Sequence record: PP400788
DNA length: 64,000 nucleotides
Source: Escherichia phage FL33
Reading direction: 5' to 3' (one strand)
A program made the translations under genes and the position numbers. The notes below the pieces were generated by a model. That model had not been told where the DNA came from and ran no database searches. It was given only the letters and a program-made list of their open reading frames with translations. This document shows, in pieces, positions 12,987-61,003 of this stretch (position 1 is its first letter; the number at the start of each line of letters is the position of its first letter).

Positions 12987-13031
12987 AACTTTTCCTCTTG
13001 TTATGGATTATTTATTAACGGTCTGTGTACT

Positions 13032-15334: not shown

Positions 15335-16350
15335 CATTATGTTCAGATAAGGTCGTTAATCTTACCCCGGAATTATATCCAGCTGCATGTCACCATGCAG
15401 ATCAGACTATATCTCCAACTTGTTAAAGCAAGTTGTCTATCGTTTCGAGTCACTTGACCCTACTCCCCAAAGGGATAGTCGTTAGGCATTTATGTAGAAC
15501 CAATTCCATTTATCAGATTTTACACGATAAGTAACTAATCCAGACGAAATTTTAAAATGTCTAGCTGCATCTGCTGCACAATCAAAAATAACCCCATCAC
15601 ATGAAATCTTTTTAATATTACTAGGCTTTTTACCTTTCATCTTTTCTGATATTTTAGATTTAGTTATGTCTGAATGCTTATGATTAAAGAATGAATTATT
15701 TTCACCTGAACGATTTCTGCATTTACTACAAGTATAAGCAGAAGTTTGTATGCGAACACCGCACTTACAAAACTTATGGGTTTCTGGATTCCAACGCCCG
15801 TTTTTACTTCCGGGTTTACTGTAAAGAGCTTTCCGACCATCAGGTCCAAGTTTAAGCATCTTAGCTTTAACAGTTTCAGAACGTTTCTTAATAATTTCTT
15901 CTTTTAATGGATGCGTAGAACATGTATCACCAAACGTTGCATCAGCAATATTGTATCCATTAATTTTAGAATTAAGCTCTTTAATCCAAAAATTTTCTCG
16001 TTCAATAATCAAATCTTTCTCATATGGAATTTCTTCCAAAATAGAACATTCAAACACATTACCATGTTTGTTAAAAGACCTCTGAAGCTTTATAGAAGAA
16101 TGGCATCCTTTTTCTAAATCTTTAAAATGCCTCTTCCATCTCTTTTCAAAATCTTTAGCACTTCCTACATATACTTTATTGTTTAAAGTATTTTTAATCT
16201 GATAAATTCCGCTTTTCATAAATACCTCTTTAAATATAGAAGTATTTATTAAAGGGCAGTCCTACAATTTAGCACGGGATTGTCTACTAGAGAGGTTCCC
16301 CGTTTAGATAGATTACAAGTATAAGTCACCTTATACTCAGGCCTCAATTA
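15335..16350 (-). mobile_element. td group I self-splicing intron (1016 nt) carrying I-TevI
   Basis: Intron 5' end reads UAAUUGAGGCCUGAGUAUAAGGUGACUUAUACUUGUAAUCUAUCUAAACGGGGAACCUCUCUAGUAGACAAUCCCGUGCUAAAUUGUAGGACU on the minus strand, matching the remembered T4 td intron; exon 1 ends GGU; intron ends AAUG. Confidence 0.9.
15482..16219 (-). CDS. I-TevI: I-TevI GIY-YIG homing endonuclease (intron-encoded)
   Basis: 245-aa ORF MKSGIYQIKNTLNNKVYVGSAKDFEKRWKRHFKDLEKG... with GIY-YIG motif and C-terminal zinc finger/DNA-binding region. Confidence 0.92.
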   Translation of the reverse strand: MKSGIYQIKNTLNNKVYVGSAKDFEKRWKRHFKDLEKGCHSSIKLQRSFNKHGNVFECSILEEIPYEKDLIIERENFWIKELNSKINGYNIADATFGDTCSTHPLKEEIIKKRSETVKAKMLKLGPDGRKALYSKPGSKNGRWNPETHKFCKCGVRIQTSAYTCSKCRNRSGENNSFFNHKHSDITKSKISEKMKGKKPSNIKKISCDGVIFDCAADAARHFKISSGLVTYRVKSDKWNWFYINA

Positions 16351-17315: not shown

Positions 17316-18145
<830 letters not shown>

Positions 18146-55478: not shown

Positions 55479-55687
55479 AAAAATCCTCTTTGAAATTCGA
55501 CTCTTTGAAATCCACCCCAGTCAGTATATCGCATTTCAGCATTGAACTCGACTGAACCATCTGCATGCATCATGAATGAATGCGTGACGACATCACAATC
55601 CCAGCTTTTCATACCCCATTTATCAGCGATAGCTTTATCAAGAACCTTCTGGAGGTCTTCATTTGGTTTAATCCAACGATTTAACAT
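55475..55687 (-). CDS. hypothetical protein
   Basis: 70-aa ORF downstream of early promoter 55714-55743. Confidence 0.5.
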   Translation of the reverse strand: MLNRWIKPNEDLQKVLDKAIADKWGMKSWDCDVVTHSFMMHADGSVEFNAEMRYTDWGGFQRVEFQRGFL

Positions 55688-55713
55688 AGTGTTCTCCTAT
55701 ATAAGATATTTTT

Positions 55714-55743
55714 ATTATACCACACTCATTTTGACATGTAAAC
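55714..55743 (-). promoter_or_regulatory. T4-type early promoter
   Basis: GTTTACA ... TGnTATAAT on minus strand, just downstream of the soc terminator. Confidence 0.6.
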
Positions 55744-55750
55744 CATAAAA

Positions 55751-55778
55751 TGAAAAAAGGAATCCCGGAGGATTCCTT
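55751..55778 (-). terminator. intrinsic terminator after soc
   Basis: Minus strand AAGGAAUCC-UCCG-GGAUUCCUU followed by UUUUCAUUUU. Confidence 0.7.
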
Positions 55779-55785
55779 AAATTAT

Positions 55786-56043
55786 TTAACCACCGACACC
55801 TGGTGTCGGTGTAACAGTCCAAAGACCTTCATTAGCAGTGATCCATTCAGTACGCTGATTTTCTTCATATACTGTAGAATATGCTGCTTTTTCAGAAGGG
55901 AATGTCTGATAATGAGCACCAGAAATTTTGTGAACATCAGAATAAAGAGGGAAAGCTACAGAAATTTCTTTACCCTGAATTGTACCACCATCAACTGCTT
56001 GGTCAAATGTTTTGATATTAACATAACCGCGAGTACTAGCCAT
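55786..56043 (-). CDS. soc: Soc small outer capsid protein
   Basis: 85-aa ORF MASTRGYVNIKTF...ISVAFPLYSDVHKISGAHYQTFPSEKAAYSTVYEENQRTEWI...; preceded by late promoter. Confidence 0.88.
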   Translation of the reverse strand: MASTRGYVNIKTFDQAVDGGTIQGKEISVAFPLYSDVHKISGAHYQTFPSEKAAYSTVYEENQRTEWITANEGLWTVTPTPGVGG

Positions 56044-56073
56044 GTAATTCTCCTTTTATTTAAATTACATGAT

Positions 56074-56081
56074 TATTTATA
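56074..56081 (-). promoter_or_regulatory. late promoter TATAAATA for soc
   Basis: Exact TATAAATA on minus strand about 30 nt upstream of soc ATG. Confidence 0.65.
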
Positions 56082-56111
56082 ATAAATTCTCGCGGCTTTT
56101 AAGACGAGCTG

Positions 56112-56630
56112 TTAATAACCTCGGTCTTGACGAGCGAAGTTTTCAGCATTTTTCAGATAATAAAGTTTAAAGATTTCTTCTGCTGTAAGACCAAGACCTT
56201 GGAACATGTTCAGAACGAAATGGAGAATATCAATCATTTCAAATTTAATTTCCAATTGGTCTTGTGGAGACAAATCAGTAATCAGAGTTTCACGGCGTTC
56301 ACCATGCTGAGCTTTCCACGGCTTCCATACAGCAGATGCATCTTTTTCGCCATTGCTCATACCACCAAGAGAAGTCAGAAGTTCGCGGAATTCATCATCA
56401 ATATAATCTTTCTGATTACGCAGCCAATCAACAACTTCACCTGCAGTAGCCAAATCATCAGGATGACGGTTATATTCAGGTTTATCTTTAGCTAAACGAA
56501 TCTGCAGAGATTTCTGCATGTCAAGCATTACCTGCAGCGGGTCTTTTTCATCACCGAGAATATCCCAATATTCATTTTGAGCTTTATCAGCGCCTTCAAT
56601 CAGTTGTGAACATTCGTTAAAGTAAGCCAT
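56112..56630 (-). CDS. 56: dCTPase/dUTPase (dCTP pyrophosphatase)
   Basis: 172 aa from ATG 56630 with SD AAGGA (ORF-track upstream extension begins at a GTG); MAYFNECSQLIEGADKAQNEYWDILGDEK... Confidence 0.85.
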   Translation of the reverse strand: MAYFNECSQLIEGADKAQNEYWDILGDEKDPLQVMLDMQKSLQIRLAKDKPEYNRHPDDLATAGEVVDWLRNQKDYIDDEFRELLTSLGGMSNGEKDASAVWKPWKAQHGERRETLITDLSPQDQLEIKFEMIDILHFVLNMFQGLGLTAEEIFKLYYLKNAENFARQDRGY

Positions 56631-56701
56631 TATTTTTCCTTTCAATTCATGGGTTAGTAGATTAATTATACAATAAATATATAAAGCAATAAGGAGGACA
56701 T

Positions 56702-56902
56702 ATGGTACAAAAATTAATGGCACTTGTTAATGCCATCAAAGGTAATAAAAAACGTATAGCTTTTACTATTTCTGCTATGATAGGAATTTTACTTTGGAAT
56801 TTTGTTTTATCACCAGTTGCTATTGCTCATGGCGTTAGTATTCCAGTAATTACTCTTGATACATTCGTGGATTTAGCATTTGCTTTAGTTGGGTTAATTT
56901 AA
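56702..56902 (+). CDS. small membrane protein, divergently oriented (hypothetical)
   Basis: 66-aa plus-strand ORF with two hydrophobic helices and very strong SD (AAGGAGGACAT-ATG); only plus-strand ORF in this early-gene block. Confidence 0.5.
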   Translation: MVQKLMALVNAIKGNKKRIAFTISAMIGILLWNFVLSPVAIAHGVSIPVITLDTFVDLAFALVGLI

Positions 56903-57927
56903 ATCTTAGCATATTTAGATAGCCGCATTTTAGCCATCAACCCTTGGGCAATATTATTTTTCATATATTCCATAATTTGTTCAGGGGTTGCACCTTCCTT
57001 TCTAATCATATCATTGACGTCTTTTGATTTCCAGGGAGATTTATCCCAAAACATAACCCTTTCTCCTGCATCAACTAATTTAGTCATTCGTTTGATAGTG
57101 TCAGGGTGACGAGGTTCATTATCTAAAACCCACACTCGTCTATCTTTAAATGGAACAATTTCTAGGTCTAATTGACCGCCTGTAATAGCTATACCATTTT
57201 CAATAAAAAGCGAATCTATAGGTCCTTCTAGAACATATACATCGCCATCTTTAACCCGTTCGACACCGTAAATTTTTGTTGCCTCAGGATAAGCTTTGAT
57301 GGTAATATACTTTTGTGGAGCATCTTTCTTTAATGCACGCCCTTGAAACGACTCGGCTTTTCCATTAGCATTATAAATTGGAATAACAAGACGAGGCTCA
57401 GGTATTTCCTTTTTATATGTTCCCGGTGCTATGCTATTAACTAATTTAGGCCATTCAGTTGTAAACCAAAGATATTTCCATTTATCCTTTGGAATACAAC
57501 GAGCTTTTACGTATTTTATAATTGGATGGTCTTCCGCCAGTTTATCTAATCTAATGCATGACGGAAGAGATTTAATTATTTTCTTCTCAGGTTGTTTAGG
57601 AAGTTCTTTAGGTTTTTCTACTGGACGACTTTTACCTTTTTCTTTTCTTATTTCAAAGATATACTCACGATATAAATCAGGTTCAAACTCCTTTAAATAT
57701 ATTCCGATTGGTGCATGATAGTTACAGTTATAACAATGAATATTTCCTTCATTATTATCGCCATAATACCATCCACGAGCTTTATTCTGGTCGGTTTTTG
57801 AATCTCCACAAACAGGGCATCTAAACCGCAATTTAAAAGTTGAACTATTATTTACTTGTGTGAATTTAGGTAAATGAGCTAATGCACGGTATGCAAACTC
57901 ATTATCAATCCAAGGTATTGATGACAT
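56899..57927 (-). CDS. 61: gp61 DNA primase
   Basis: 342-aa ORF with N-terminal zinc ribbon (CPVCGDS...HCYNCNYH) and TOPRIM core; T4 gp61 is 342 aa. Confidence 0.92.
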   Translation of the reverse strand: MSSIPWIDNEFAYRALAHLPKFTQVNNSSTFKLRFRCPVCGDSKTDQNKARGWYYGDNNEGNIHCYNCNYHAPIGIYLKEFEPDLYREYIFEIRKEKGKSRPVEKPKELPKQPEKKIIKSLPSCIRLDKLAEDHPIIKYVKARCIPKDKWKYLWFTTEWPKLVNSIAPGTYKKEIPEPRLVIPIYNANGKAESFQGRALKKDAPQKYITIKAYPEATKIYGVERVKDGDVYVLEGPIDSLFIENGIAITGGQLDLEIVPFKDRRVWVLDNEPRHPDTIKRMTKLVDAGERVMFWDKSPWKSKDVNDMIRKEGATPEQIMEYMKNNIAQGLMAKMRLSKYAKI

Positions 57928-57929
57928 TT

Positions 57930-58094
57930 TTACTCTTCTTTTTCTTTAGATTCCTCTTTTTTCTTTTTAGGAATCTGTTCAGGACCTTTATTTACTACAG
58001 CGCCTGATGTTGTTCCAGTAGAGATATTTTCAGGATTACCACCTGAATCTCCAGCGACCATATCTTCTTTGATAAATTCTTTATATGTTTTCAT
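57930..58094 (-). CDS. small Lys/Glu-rich protein (positional equivalent of T4 61.1; sub-threshold ORF)
   Basis: 54-aa ORF MKTYKEFIKEDMVAGDSGGNPENI...; ATG overlaps upstream stop. Confidence 0.5.
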   Translation of the reverse strand: MKTYKEFIKEDMVAGDSGGNPENISTGTTSGAVVNKGPEQIPKKKKEESKEKEE

Positions 58095-58095
58095 A

Positions 58096-58722
58096 TTAAC
58101 CTCTATTCATAAAAGCATTAAAAATTTGGTCATCAATAGAAACATTTACTTTAGACTGTTTTTCAGATGGCAATTCATATCCACATATTACAATTTTATG
58201 ATCAATATCAAAATACACAGAAGCAATATGATTAATGATATTTTCAGTGAAGTCTAAATCAACATCAATGTCTTTTTGACCAAAACCCAAAGGATAAATA
58301 ATGCGAGTAATTCGATTATCTTTAACAAAGATTCCACCGACATACTCTGTGCTGCGTTTAAAGTCTACACGCCGACGAAATGAAAAATATTCAGGCTCTT
58401 TATGAGCTCGGCTCATAGGGCACAACGAATAACTAGAATAAGAGATGTCAAATCCTACGCCTTCAATATGAACTAAATTGTCATGATTAAACCAATTATA
58501 ATCATATGCCAAGTCCATTAGATTGTCATATGTGAAAGGCACCGGATTAACATCATTGGTCACAAGCATATAATTAGCAACTGCTATAATTTCATTATTT
58601 TTAACGAAAACAAACCGTGATTGATGCGAATGACCTGGACCTGTGTTTTCACGATTAATGATATAACACTGGGCACCTTTATATTTGTACGTGTCTTTAC
58701 ACTTGTGCATTTGATAAAGCAT
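58096..58722 (-). CDS. hypothetical protein (positional equivalent of T4 61.2)
   Basis: 208-aa ORF. Confidence 0.6.
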   Translation of the reverse strand: MLYQMHKCKDTYKYKGAQCYIINRENTGPGHSHQSRFVFVKNNEIIAVANYMLVTNDVNPVPFTYDNLMDLAYDYNWFNHDNLVHIEGVGFDISYSSYSLCPMSRAHKEPEYFSFRRRVDFKRSTEYVGGIFVKDNRITRIIYPLGFGQKDIDVDLDFTENIINHIASVYFDIDHKIVICGYELPSEKQSKVNVSIDDQIFNAFMNRG

Positions 58723-59015
58723 TATTCACCTACCACTTCAGCGATGATATTTTTATTATTAAAGTTTTTATCGCAATACAGAACATAATTATACTGCATT
58801 ACACCGCCAGACTTAAGTTGTTTTTGAACTTCGGCTTTCATTTCAGGACGATCACGCTCAACGATATTCATAATATCTGCTTCAATTTGAGTTTCAACCT
58901 CAGTCTGATCTGCAGTCATAGACCATTCGCACAAATCTTTATCATAACCTGCCATAGCAGGCTGAGCAGCACAAGAAGCTAAAGCAAAAATTGTGGCAAA
59001 GATAAATTTTTTCAT
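58722..59015 (-). CDS. sp: Spackle periplasmic protein (superinfection exclusion/lysozyme inhibitor)
   Basis: 97-aa ORF with cleavable signal peptide MKKFIFATIFALASCAAQPAMA; T4 Sp (61.3) is 97 aa. Confidence 0.75.
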   Translation of the reverse strand: MKKFIFATIFALASCAAQPAMAGYDKDLCEWSMTADQTEVETQIEADIMNIVERDRPEMKAEVQKQLKSGGVMQYNYVLYCDKNFNNKNIIAEVVGE

Positions 59016-59075
59016 GATAATCTCCTCAGTAGTTTATGTTTATATAGTATCTCAATTTTCAACAAAAGTAAACAG

Positions 59076-59333
59076 TTATTTTAAAACTTCTGCGTAATCA
59101 CATGTTACAAACTGTTTCTCTAACTTGACGATTTTACGAAAGTATCTTTTGCATTGGCGAATCTGCCGCTTCGTAGGGCGAACAGCAAACTTAATAAATT
59201 CCACTCGACCAAATGGAGGACTTTCTTCTGCTGGAATATCTAACACCAATTCCCACGTATCTGCAATAAGTGCTTTGAATTGCGTATTTTTCCTGACGTT
59301 ATACGGAGTGGGTTTAAATAAAACAATATGCAT
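59076..59333 (-). CDS. hypothetical protein (positional equivalent of T4 61.4)
   Basis: 85-aa ORF. Confidence 0.55.
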   Translation of the reverse strand: MHIVLFKPTPYNVRKNTQFKALIADTWELVLDIPAEESPPFGRVEFIKFAVRPTKRQIRQCKRYFRKIVKLEKQFVTCDYAEVLK

Positions 59334-59334
59334 A

Positions 59335-59517
59335 TTATCCTCGGCAATCTACTTCACATACTTTCTTGTCATCAATGAAAGCTTTAACTAATGCTTTATT
59401 AACTTCAGCATATTGAGTAGTAGCCCATTGAACGTCATCTTTCATCATTGTGATTTCTTTAGTAAACATGCTTTCATTCTTAAACCACCCCATAAAAACT
59501 ACCTTTACCAATTCCAT
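59335..59517 (-). CDS. dmd: Dmd antitoxin (inhibitor of host RnlA/LsoA toxins)
   Basis: 60-aa ORF MELVKVVFMGWFKNESMFTKEITMMKDDVQW... at the 61.5 position just downstream of gene 41; T4 Dmd is 60 aa. Confidence 0.7.
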   Translation of the reverse strand: MELVKVVFMGWFKNESMFTKEITMMKDDVQWATTQYAEVNKALVKAFIDDKKVCEVDCRG

Positions 59518-59546
59518 AACAATCTCCTCATTTAACCAACAAGACT

Positions 59547-59576
59547 ACTATACCATAGTCTTGTCAGCTTGTAAAC
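59547..59576 (-). promoter_or_regulatory. T4-type early promoter upstream of dmd
   Basis: GTTTACA ... TGnTATAGT on minus strand overlapping the 3' end of gene 41. Confidence 0.55.
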
Positions 59577-61003
59577 TAAAATTTTAATTCATTTGCCAAA
59601 GCATCTAACTGGGCTCGAGTGGATTCATTTCTTTGATAGCGATTCTGTTCAGCCTGAATCTGTTGTGAACCTGCTACTTCGTTCACTTCAGTTGGAGTAG
59701 AATCTTGTTCAATTTCTACCCATTTCTGATTTCCTTTTTGAACACCCATCAAAAACTTATTCCATTTATTCTTATCACCATATCGTGATTTGATTTGCTT
59801 AATGAGTTGTTGTTCAGCAGCTGCCAACTCCTCGGTTTCAATGACCGCAAGCATAAAATCAGCTGTTGCTGGAAGACCAGCAGATTCTGCAATATCGCTC
59901 ATGTTAACATCAGAAGAATCCCAAGCTTGTTTGCCGACCTGTGCTGCAGTCCAAAGAACAGTTTCGGTTTCAACAGCCAGAGCACGCAATTCCTCTGCAA
60001 TAGCTTTAACAGTTGTGTAACTATTTTCTGAATAAACTCTAATGCGGCAAGATTTACAAATACCCAGATAGTCTACAATAATGATTGTTGGAACAAAATT
60101 CTTCTTGAGCTTCAATTCATTCAAGAGAGACCTGAATGTGTTAGCATCTGCCCCACCAGTAGGATACTGTTTAACGATTAAACGGCCGAGAGTAGATTTC
60201 TCACGCCATTTTTCCATTTTTCCTTTATATTCAGCGTAAGAAATATGCCCATCATCAATGTCATCAAGAGAAACATCGAGCATATTAGCGTCAATACGTT
60301 TAGCACAGACTTCTTCTGCCATTTCCATGGAAATGTAAAGAACATTATGTCCGAGCTGTAAATAATCTGCTGCTAATGAACACAATCCTAATGACTTACC
60401 AACGTTAACGCCAGCCATTAAAACGTTCAGTGTTCCAGTCTCAGCTCCGCCTTTAGTAATTTTGTTTAGAATTCTGAGTTTAAATGGAACCTTACGAGCT
60501 TTATTCATATAAGATAGCCAACGTGCTTCGTAGTCATCCATCCAATCATGACCAACGTAGCTATCAAATGAAATTGATAATGCTTGACGCATAATGTCAG
60601 GAATAGCACCAACATCCGGCATTTTTTTATTTCGTTTTTCCGGAGGAAGCTCAGCATTAGTTTGAATTTCGATTATTTTAGACGTAGCATTAAACATCGC
60701 CCTTTGCTGAACATATTTTTCTGTTTCTTTTACTAACCAACTGTGGTCTTCTGGAGAATCGGCTAGTTTTGAAATAAGTGTTTTTACACCAGAATATTCT
60801 GTTTCAGTAAATGAACTATTTTCTAATGCAACATTTAACGCATTAATAGATGGAACGCTATGGTACTCATTAACATGAGATTTAATTAATTTGAATGTAT
60901 TTTTAGCTGGACCACTTTCAAAATATTCTGAATCCATATATGGCCAAACTTTTGAAAAATAAGCTTGATCAAATATGAGATGAGAAAGAATAATTTCTAC
61001 CAC
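59576..61003 (-). CDS. 41: gp41 replicative DNA helicase (DnaB-like)
   Basis: 475-aa ORF with Walker A GVNVGKS and DnaB-family motifs; T4 gp41 is 475 aa. Confidence 0.92.
   Translation of the reverse strand: MVEIILSHLIFDQAYFSKVWPYMDSEYFESGPAKNTFKLIKSHVNEYHSVPSINALNVALENSSFTETEYSGVKTLISKLADSPEDHSWLVKETEKYVQQRAMFNATSKIIEIQTNAELPPEKRNKKMPDVGAIPDIMRQALSISFDSYVGHDWMDDYEARWLSYMNKARKVPFKLRILNKITKGGAETGTLNVLMAGVNVGKSLGLCSLAADYLQLGHNVLYISMEMAEEVCAKRIDANMLDVSLDDIDDGHISYAEYKGKMEKWREKSTLGRLIVKQYPTGGADANTFRSLLNELKLKKNFVPTIIIVDYLGICKSCRIRVYSENSYTTVKAIAEELRALAVETETVLWTAAQVGKQAWDSSDVNMSDIAESAGLPATADFMLAVIETEELAAAEQQLIKQIKSRYGDKNKWNKFLMGVQKGNQKWVEIEQDSTPTEVNEVAGSQQIQAEQNRYQRNESTRAQLDALANELKF

Follow-up and report, generated by a model that had tools for sequence, protein, structure and literature searches.

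In the 64,000-nt stretch of Escherichia phage FL33 analysed here (record PP400788; hereafter the window), the two minus-strand genes 56 and 61 are separated by a short space that holds a small open reading frame (ORF) on the opposite strand. The features on which our argument rests, with positions counted from the first letter of the window, are these:

56112..56630, minus strand: gene 56 (dCTP pyrophosphatase), 75% amino acid identity with T4T gp56.
56691..56682, minus strand: middle-promoter-like site for gene 56, the box TATTGCTTTA, followed after an 11-nt spacer by TATAAT at 56670..56665.
56672..56679, plus strand: late-promoter-like box AATAAATA, the A(-13) variant of the consensus TATAAATA, recognised from sequence and comparison.
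56691..56698, plus strand: Shine-Dalgarno sequence (SD) AAGGAGGA, read from the sequence; CAT then separates the octamer from the ATG.
56702..56902, plus strand: 66-aa coding sequence with ATG start, from the ORF list; ortholog of T4T Dam.1 / RB32ORF030w, PHROG 2024.
56714..56739, minus strand: terminator-like hairpin and then TTTTTGT, within codons 5-13 of the small ORF, with gene 61 on one side of it and the gene 56 promoter on the other.
56899..56902: TTAA, the overlapping stops of the small ORF (plus strand) and primase gene 61 (minus strand), read from the sequence.
56899..57927, minus strand: gene 61 (DNA primase), 98.8% amino acid identity with T4T gp61.

An earlier, sequence-only reading of this DNA had drawn attention to a 66-aa plus-strand ORF with a very strong SD in the spacer between gene 56, starting at 56630, and gene 61, ending at 56899. 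The ORF is present at 56702..56902 and both flanking coordinates hold. The strength of the SD is borne out as well: AAGGAGG occurs once in the 64-kb window, both strands counted, against 4.35 occurrences expected by chance, and GGAG or GGAGG is present upstream of all T4-like orthologs. The distance of 7 nt to the ATG given in that reading is true only when counted from the middle of the SD (about 7); from the end of the octamer it is 3 nt, and from the last G of GGAGG 4 nt. At the other end the ORF does overlap the stop of gene 61, through the TTAA at 56899-56902: its stop TAA (56900-56902) overlaps that of gene 61 (56899-56901, minus strand), the two genes are convergent, and no space is left between them for a terminator. 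The small ORF had also been described as the sole plus-strand ORF of this early region. It is the only plus-strand gene within at least 3 kb on either side (in the annotated record, identical over the compared region); the remaining plus-strand ORFs listed nearby lie antisense, inside minus-strand genes, and unlike them the small ORF occupies the sole gene-free gap. The family HMM, run against all ORFs, finds no paralog in the same genome (next-best E = 0.51), and a search of the region against Rfam gave no match.

Length alone does not place such an ORF beyond chance, since several antisense ORFs in the ORF list reach 60-122 aa; it is because the small ORF is conserved and under selection, as measured by dN/dS, that we judge it real. 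Its position and orientation are kept in Tequatrovirus, Mosigvirus (JK42), Gaprivervirus (VR7, MN01) and Jiaodavirus (KpnM6E1), in Slopek-like Klebsiella and Enterobacter phages, and in three more divergent T4-like metagenomic contigs; in all these T4-like loci the ORF and the primase gene converge, the ORF lying opposite to the early-gene strand. A profile search of 5.8 billion proteins returned 113 clusters (at 90% identity), whose lengths range from 33 to 73 aa, with 105 between 60 and 70 aa; all the named ones, like all contigs of at least about 160 kb, are T4-like. When 1.84 billion representatives were scanned exhaustively with HMMER, only 19 matches were obtained.

Across this family W32, N33, P38 and G44 are invariant, though identity drops to about 20%; P48 is conserved in at least 90% of members and G64 is nearly invariant. 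The product encoded in the window fits the family (about 57-68 aa, with the motif W-N-x4-P-x5-G-x3-P). Purifying selection is evident from dN/dS values of 0.07-0.2 within four subtypes (types A, C, D and E) and of 0.34-0.44 in the fifth, the first copy of Gaprivervirus. Between genera, amino acid identity is 28-54% for the small protein, 66-84% for gp56 and 59-74% for gp61, and the small protein evolves at a pace similar to that of Soc and Sp. In Gaprivervirus the gene is present as two tandem paralogs, the second with an SD of its own and without the promoter box discussed below. Such tandem copies lie at 1995-2401 in L005 and 2084-2470 in L004 and are found also in L014, L015 and L024; in VR7 the second copy is unannotated and its C-terminal end appears frameshifted, and in L024 the family match is confined to an N-terminally shorter ORF of 46 aa. 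That a chance ORF has arisen within an AT-rich intergenic spacer might be suggested by the many antisense ORFs of 60-122 aa in the window; conservation, synteny, dN/dS, the unique SD and the conserved promoter box all contradict it, and we consider its probability negligible. The small ORF is a real, conserved, single-copy coding gene of T-even-type phages (Tevenvirinae).

The gene is also a known one. Between 56100 and 57950 the window shows 100% identity to Escherichia phage FL34, and about 97% to RB32-like Tequatroviruses. Over window positions 1-32385, which run across the ends of the FL34 record, identity to FL34 is 99.85%; in the other compared segments it is 100%. A tblastn search with the 66-aa product matched 867 phage records, about 502 of them at 80% identity or more, and among the matches listed the ORF adjoins the primase gene. 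The ortholog in T4T, Dam.1 (ADJ39749.1; HM137666, 17724..17924, plus strand), is likewise 66 aa long and, at 93.9% amino acid identity, four substitutions apart from the window protein; strand, TTAA overlap with gene 61, type of SD and ATAAATA box are all shared. The two loci differ in the upstream neighbour, which is dam in T4T and gene 56 in the window, and in the form of the late-type box (GATAAATA in T4T, AATAAATA here). In RB51 and VR7 the ortholog goes by the name RB32ORF030w or 'similar to RB32 ORF030w', and residues 2-66 match PHROG 2024, annotated as of unknown function, with E = 1.9e-30. T4T and most newer T4-like genomes carry the annotation. The T4 RefSeq record NC_000866.4 leaves the ORF unannotated, in a 309-bp gap between dam and 61 (17626-17934). 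Searches of Pfam, NCBIfam and PDB sequence profiles, and of BFVD and PDB with Foldseek, returned the protein's own family or noise only; the papers found in a literature search on the gene's names, T4 ribosome profiling and T4 antisense RNA-seq do not mention the gene. In the FL34 record many of the names given to gene products seem to be errors that have been passed on: 'molybdenum ABC transporter' stands for small ORFs close to soc, and about ten unrelated genes in a row are all named 'thioredoxin'.

The neighbourhood invited the idea that the ORF stands in for something lost. The sequence-only reading had stated that T4 carries dam and segF here, correctly, as the annotations of T4 (order segF, 56, dam, 61) and T4T (dam on the minus strand, dam.1 on the plus strand, 61 on the minus strand) show, and had noted that neither is present in this DNA. 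The search for Dam that it had proposed agrees: tblastn against the window and the remainder of the near-identical FL34 gave no Dam homolog (best E = 1.0). For SegF the same sequences yielded distant GIY-YIG relatives (26% identity) and no ortholog, and the four [DNS]PP[YFW] strings lie outside methyltransferase-like ORFs. With dam and segF missing and the ORF at the T4 dam position, the small gene could be thought to fill the dam slot and to replace Dam or SegF functionally, for instance as an anti-restriction or anti-defence device. This proposal fails on the T4T locus, in which dam and dam.1 are adjacent: since T4 carries both, the one is no substitute for the other. The ORF region is matched too by HY03 and further dam-carrying phages, and the product is a 66-aa membrane protein from which any DPPY-type methyltransferase motif is absent. 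Records with the ORF (about 502, at 80% identity or more) also outnumber those with a T4-type Dam (182, at 90% identity or more), and by these counts the dam-less arrangement appears to be the commoner layout. A replacement of Dam or SegF is thus refuted: the feature is a known hypothetical gene of T-even phages, neither a novel insertion nor a dam substitute.

That the product is a membrane protein, as had been proposed, finds support in hydropathy, in the distribution of charge and in an AlphaFold2 model. The model, built with 58 family sequences (mean pLDDT 75.8), places helices at residues 2-12, 16-42 and 52-63; the predicted layout is a basic N-terminus (1-18), a transmembrane helix at about 16-42, a loop HGVSIPVIT and an acidic amphipathic helix at 52-63. 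Of the two hydrophobic helices in the earlier description, therefore, one stands as a spanning helix, and the second is the 12-residue C-terminal helix. Among the 58 members the net charge before the transmembrane helix ranges from 0 to +5, mostly +2 to +5, and that after it from -2 to 0. Topology prediction for the 66-aa product, which the sequence-only reading had put forward as a check, thus yields one transmembrane helix, and the positive-inside rule applied to this distribution of charge suggests an N-in/C-out arrangement with one membrane span and a short, acidic, amphipathic C-terminal helix. In the other subfamilies the C-terminal helix is too polar, or else not long enough, to cross a membrane (for example, ...TMEHIHSIIGYFTGIPS), and this speaks for a single span with an amphipathic helix on the periplasmic side. 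The last 24 residues of the window protein form a hydrophobic segment whose net charge is -2, and the Tequatrovirus form is hydrophobic throughout residues 19-66; because of this long hydrophobic stretch, the Tequatrovirus subtype may alternatively form a two-helix hairpin, N-in/C-in.

Evidence bearing on when the gene is expressed comes from the sequence ahead of it. In every T4-like lineage examined the heptamer ATAAATA stands, without variation, 12-22 nt before the ATG (of the first copy, where there are two), and it is kept whichever gene is the minus-strand neighbour (gene 56, dam, one of 94 aa, or another); the remaining upstream sequence cannot be aligned between lineages. The exact octamer TATAAATA precedes the ORF in three loci (L016, L022 and L023), and the box in the window agrees with the consensus at 7 of 8 positions, as do those of most lineages. 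No such box was found in front of the family members outside T4-like phages. Of 50 listed T4 late sites, 32 are exact and 9 carry A(-13), the commonest variant, with a caution that how strong such variants are in vivo is uncertain (Geiduschek and Kassavetis, PMC2988020); position -13 is poorly conserved among T4-like phages (Nolan et al., PMC1524935).

Within the window both octamers, AATAAATA and TATAAATA, are rarer than in shuffled sequence, and 4 of the 6 TATAAATA sites and 3 of the 7 AATAAATA sites lie 19-34 nt before the ATG of a long ORF. The ORFs behind these late-type sites span 66-1289 aa and include soc, a 218-aa ORF and a 1289-aa ORF that matches the FL34 gene named 'long tail fiber'. 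The ATG of the small ORF stands at +22 from its box, the others at +19 to +34, and the same 22-nt geometry recurs with the A(-13) variant ahead of a 245-aa and a 236-aa ORF on the minus strand of the window. At these last two places AATAAATA lies at 16243-16250 and 13009-13016 (minus strand), 22-23 nt before the ATGs; the two ORFs correspond to genes annotated in FL34 as homing endonucleases, one or other of which splits the thymidylate synthase and nrdA genes there. Ahead of soc there is an exact TATAAATA at 56074-56081 (minus strand), 30 nt before the ATG and within the 68-bp gap between gene 56 and soc, the place of segF in T4; the late gene soc shares the early-gene strand, and the small ORF does not.

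The suggestion of late expression is thus supported by comparison: (N)ATAAATA is kept in every T4-like lineage examined, at a spacing that matches other sites in the window. Because ATAAATA is conserved and AATAAATA is the commonest late-promoter variant, late, gp55-dependent expression is likely, and we read the box as a probable gp55-type late promoter, from which transcription would start near 56685 (placed by the -13..-6 convention) with a leader of about 17 nt. In Jiaodavirus the box sits just 12 nt before the ATG; a transcript begun at the usual distance would therefore retain only part of the SD.

The opposite strand carries signals of its own. The box TATTGCTTTA together with TATAAT we take to be a putative MotA-dependent middle promoter of gene 56, judged by eye against the MotA-box consensus (a/t)(a/t)(a/t)TGCTT(t/c)A plus a -10 element. 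The late box falls within the spacer of this middle-promoter-like site, because gene 56, and not dam, is the upstream neighbour here, and the MotA-like box overlaps the first base of the SD. The divergent promoters are thus interleaved, an arrangement specific to the dam-less layout; in JK42 the late box lies outside the middle-promoter spacer. The equivalent gene 56 promoter of T4, which belongs to the oriA region, is found immediately downstream of dam. The terminator-like hairpin of the minus strand folds in Tequatrovirus sequences only and in no other lineage; as a cause of the conservation of the ORF it was considered and, being confined to Tequatrovirus, ruled out. On the plus strand no terminator-like site was found downstream of the ORF within 55500-60500, and a late transcript should therefore extend antisense into gene 61. 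In Jiaodavirus a GC-rich hairpin, aaggggctttggcccct, separates the small ORF from the convergent primase gene (2160-2185 in L006; about 1690-1715 in L025-L028). It may be a bidirectional terminator; it is missing in Tequatrovirus because the two genes overlap there.

These features could be taken to mean that the locus acts mainly as RNA: a late plus-strand transcript, antisense both to the 3′-terminal part of gene 61 and to read-through from 61 to 56, would, together with the interleaved promoters, shut off or process prereplicative transcripts, and the peptide would be secondary. Convergence with gene 61 at a common stop, no plus-strand terminator thereafter, and a late box in the spacer of what looks by eye like a MotA-type promoter on the other strand are all in keeping with this, as is the transcription of both T4 strands at differing times at several sites (PMC2988020). 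It is nonetheless the amino acid sequence that is under purifying selection, with motifs that persist at 20-30% identity; the Jiaodavirus hairpin, straight after the ORF, would limit antisense read-through; and the interleaving of promoters is not conserved, the neighbour being dam in T4 and the box lying outside the spacer in JK42. A locus that works mainly through its RNA is accordingly doubtful, and we regard an antisense effect on early and middle transcripts as a possible addition to the making of a protein.

What a late membrane protein of this kind might do is a matter for speculation, and two roles deserve to be weighed. The first is in lysis, the product being a holin-like, pinholin-like or lysis-modulating membrane protein. 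The small size and the one or more transmembrane domains by which a holin is recognised are both found in the predicted product, and its promoter is of late type. The UniProt entry for the ortholog in OE5505 is labelled 'Holin', which we take to be automatic annotation. Against this, none of the 58 members matches a holin family of Pfam or NCBIfam at E <= 10. A typical holin ends in a hydrophilic, highly charged tail, whereas the C-terminus here is hydrophobic or acidic and has no such tail. In size, transmembrane helix and expected late expression the small protein resembles class II and III holins, pinholin S21 68 and the T4 antiholin RI, but with none of these does it share sequence or profile similarity. 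T4, moreover, already encodes the holin T, spanins and the antiholins RI and RIII; none of the T4-like loci has the gene beside lysis genes, and no r-type mutation is known to map to the locus.

A further lead to function, and a weak one, is the context of the distant relatives. These family members outside the T4-like phages sit in siphovirus-like contigs and at one prophage end, where their neighbours are an Endonuclease VII gene and a conserved two-gene module (about 180 aa and about 106 aa) that weakly matches 'minor tail protein'. In favour of a role in lysis, in one such siphovirus-like lineage (L034, L035) the family member opens an operon whose last gene is T4-lysozyme-like, and in L040 and L043 a lysozyme gene lies within 3.5 kb; in L033 and L042, to the contrary, the module runs on into tail-chaperone-like genes and not to lysozyme. 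(The loci are L033 3001-4082, L034 3001-4610, L042 4001-5089, L040 1980-3213 and L043 3543-4159; in L041 the neighbour of the family member is a gene with a RelA_SpoT domain.) The partner genes of the distant relatives have no homologs in the T4-like genome of the window and are found in no cultured phage. The 94-aa neighbours seen in divergent T4-like and in siphovirus-like loci were compared as possibly related genes; their sequences are unrelated.

The second role is in exclusion or anti-defence, as had been offered by the sequence-only reading: a membrane peptide that blocks the entry of superinfecting DNA or a membrane-acting host defence. In favour of this, the product is predicted to be a small envelope protein, and it is encoded 1.8 kb from sp (58722..59015 in the window). 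It evolves faster than the neighbouring enzymes, much as Sp does (27-55% identity across genera, a similar rate); the gene is duplicated and diversified in Gaprivervirus; and family members have reached unrelated siphovirus-like phages and a prophage end. Imm and Sp of T4 are, like it, small envelope proteins of T-even phages. Their genes, however, are prereplicative and on the early strand, whereas the small gene lies on the opposite strand behind a late-type box, and the family HMM finds no relative elsewhere in the genome, so that there is no similarity to Imm, Sp or RI. We consider the lysis-related and the exclusion- or defence-related roles about equally likely, and either of them, taken singly, unlikely.

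The explanation that we favour, with fair though not full confidence, is that the ORF is a genuine single-copy T-even gene, the ortholog of dam.1 / RB32ORF030w, whose product is probably an inner-membrane protein made late in infection. At that time RNA polymerase, with gp55, gp33 and gp45, would start from the AATAAATA box at 56672-56679; the leader of about 17 nt would bear the strongest SD of the window and so allow efficient translation of the 66-aa product. The protein would insert into the inner membrane so that the basic N-terminus faces the cytoplasm, followed by a single transmembrane helix bearing W32-N33...P38 and by a short periplasmic tail made up of the H/x-G44...P48 loop and the acidic amphipathic helix. 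Through the conserved W-N...P...G...P surface, in or near the membrane on its periplasmic side, it would bind another envelope protein, and the candidate late processes are the timing of lysis or exclusion and defence at the membrane. The late transcript would continue antisense into primase gene 61.

A bolder proposal, which we put forward with little expectation that it will prove right in full, is that this is an overlooked late inner-membrane microprotein with a part in one of the classic envelope phenotypes – lysis timing, lysis inhibition or late exclusion – and that the late switch would also strike the middle promoter of gene 56, in the oriA region.

The gene is already annotated, and uncharacterised, in T-even phages, and its interest stems mainly from its absence from the T4 reference annotation. 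T4 is the reference for this phage family, yet NC_000866.4 omits the gene; studies that use that annotation therefore cannot report on it. If the predictions of a late promoter and of a membrane location are true, the locus would encode a compact, conserved and fast-evolving envelope protein, and such proteins often mediate conflicts between phage and host or between phages.
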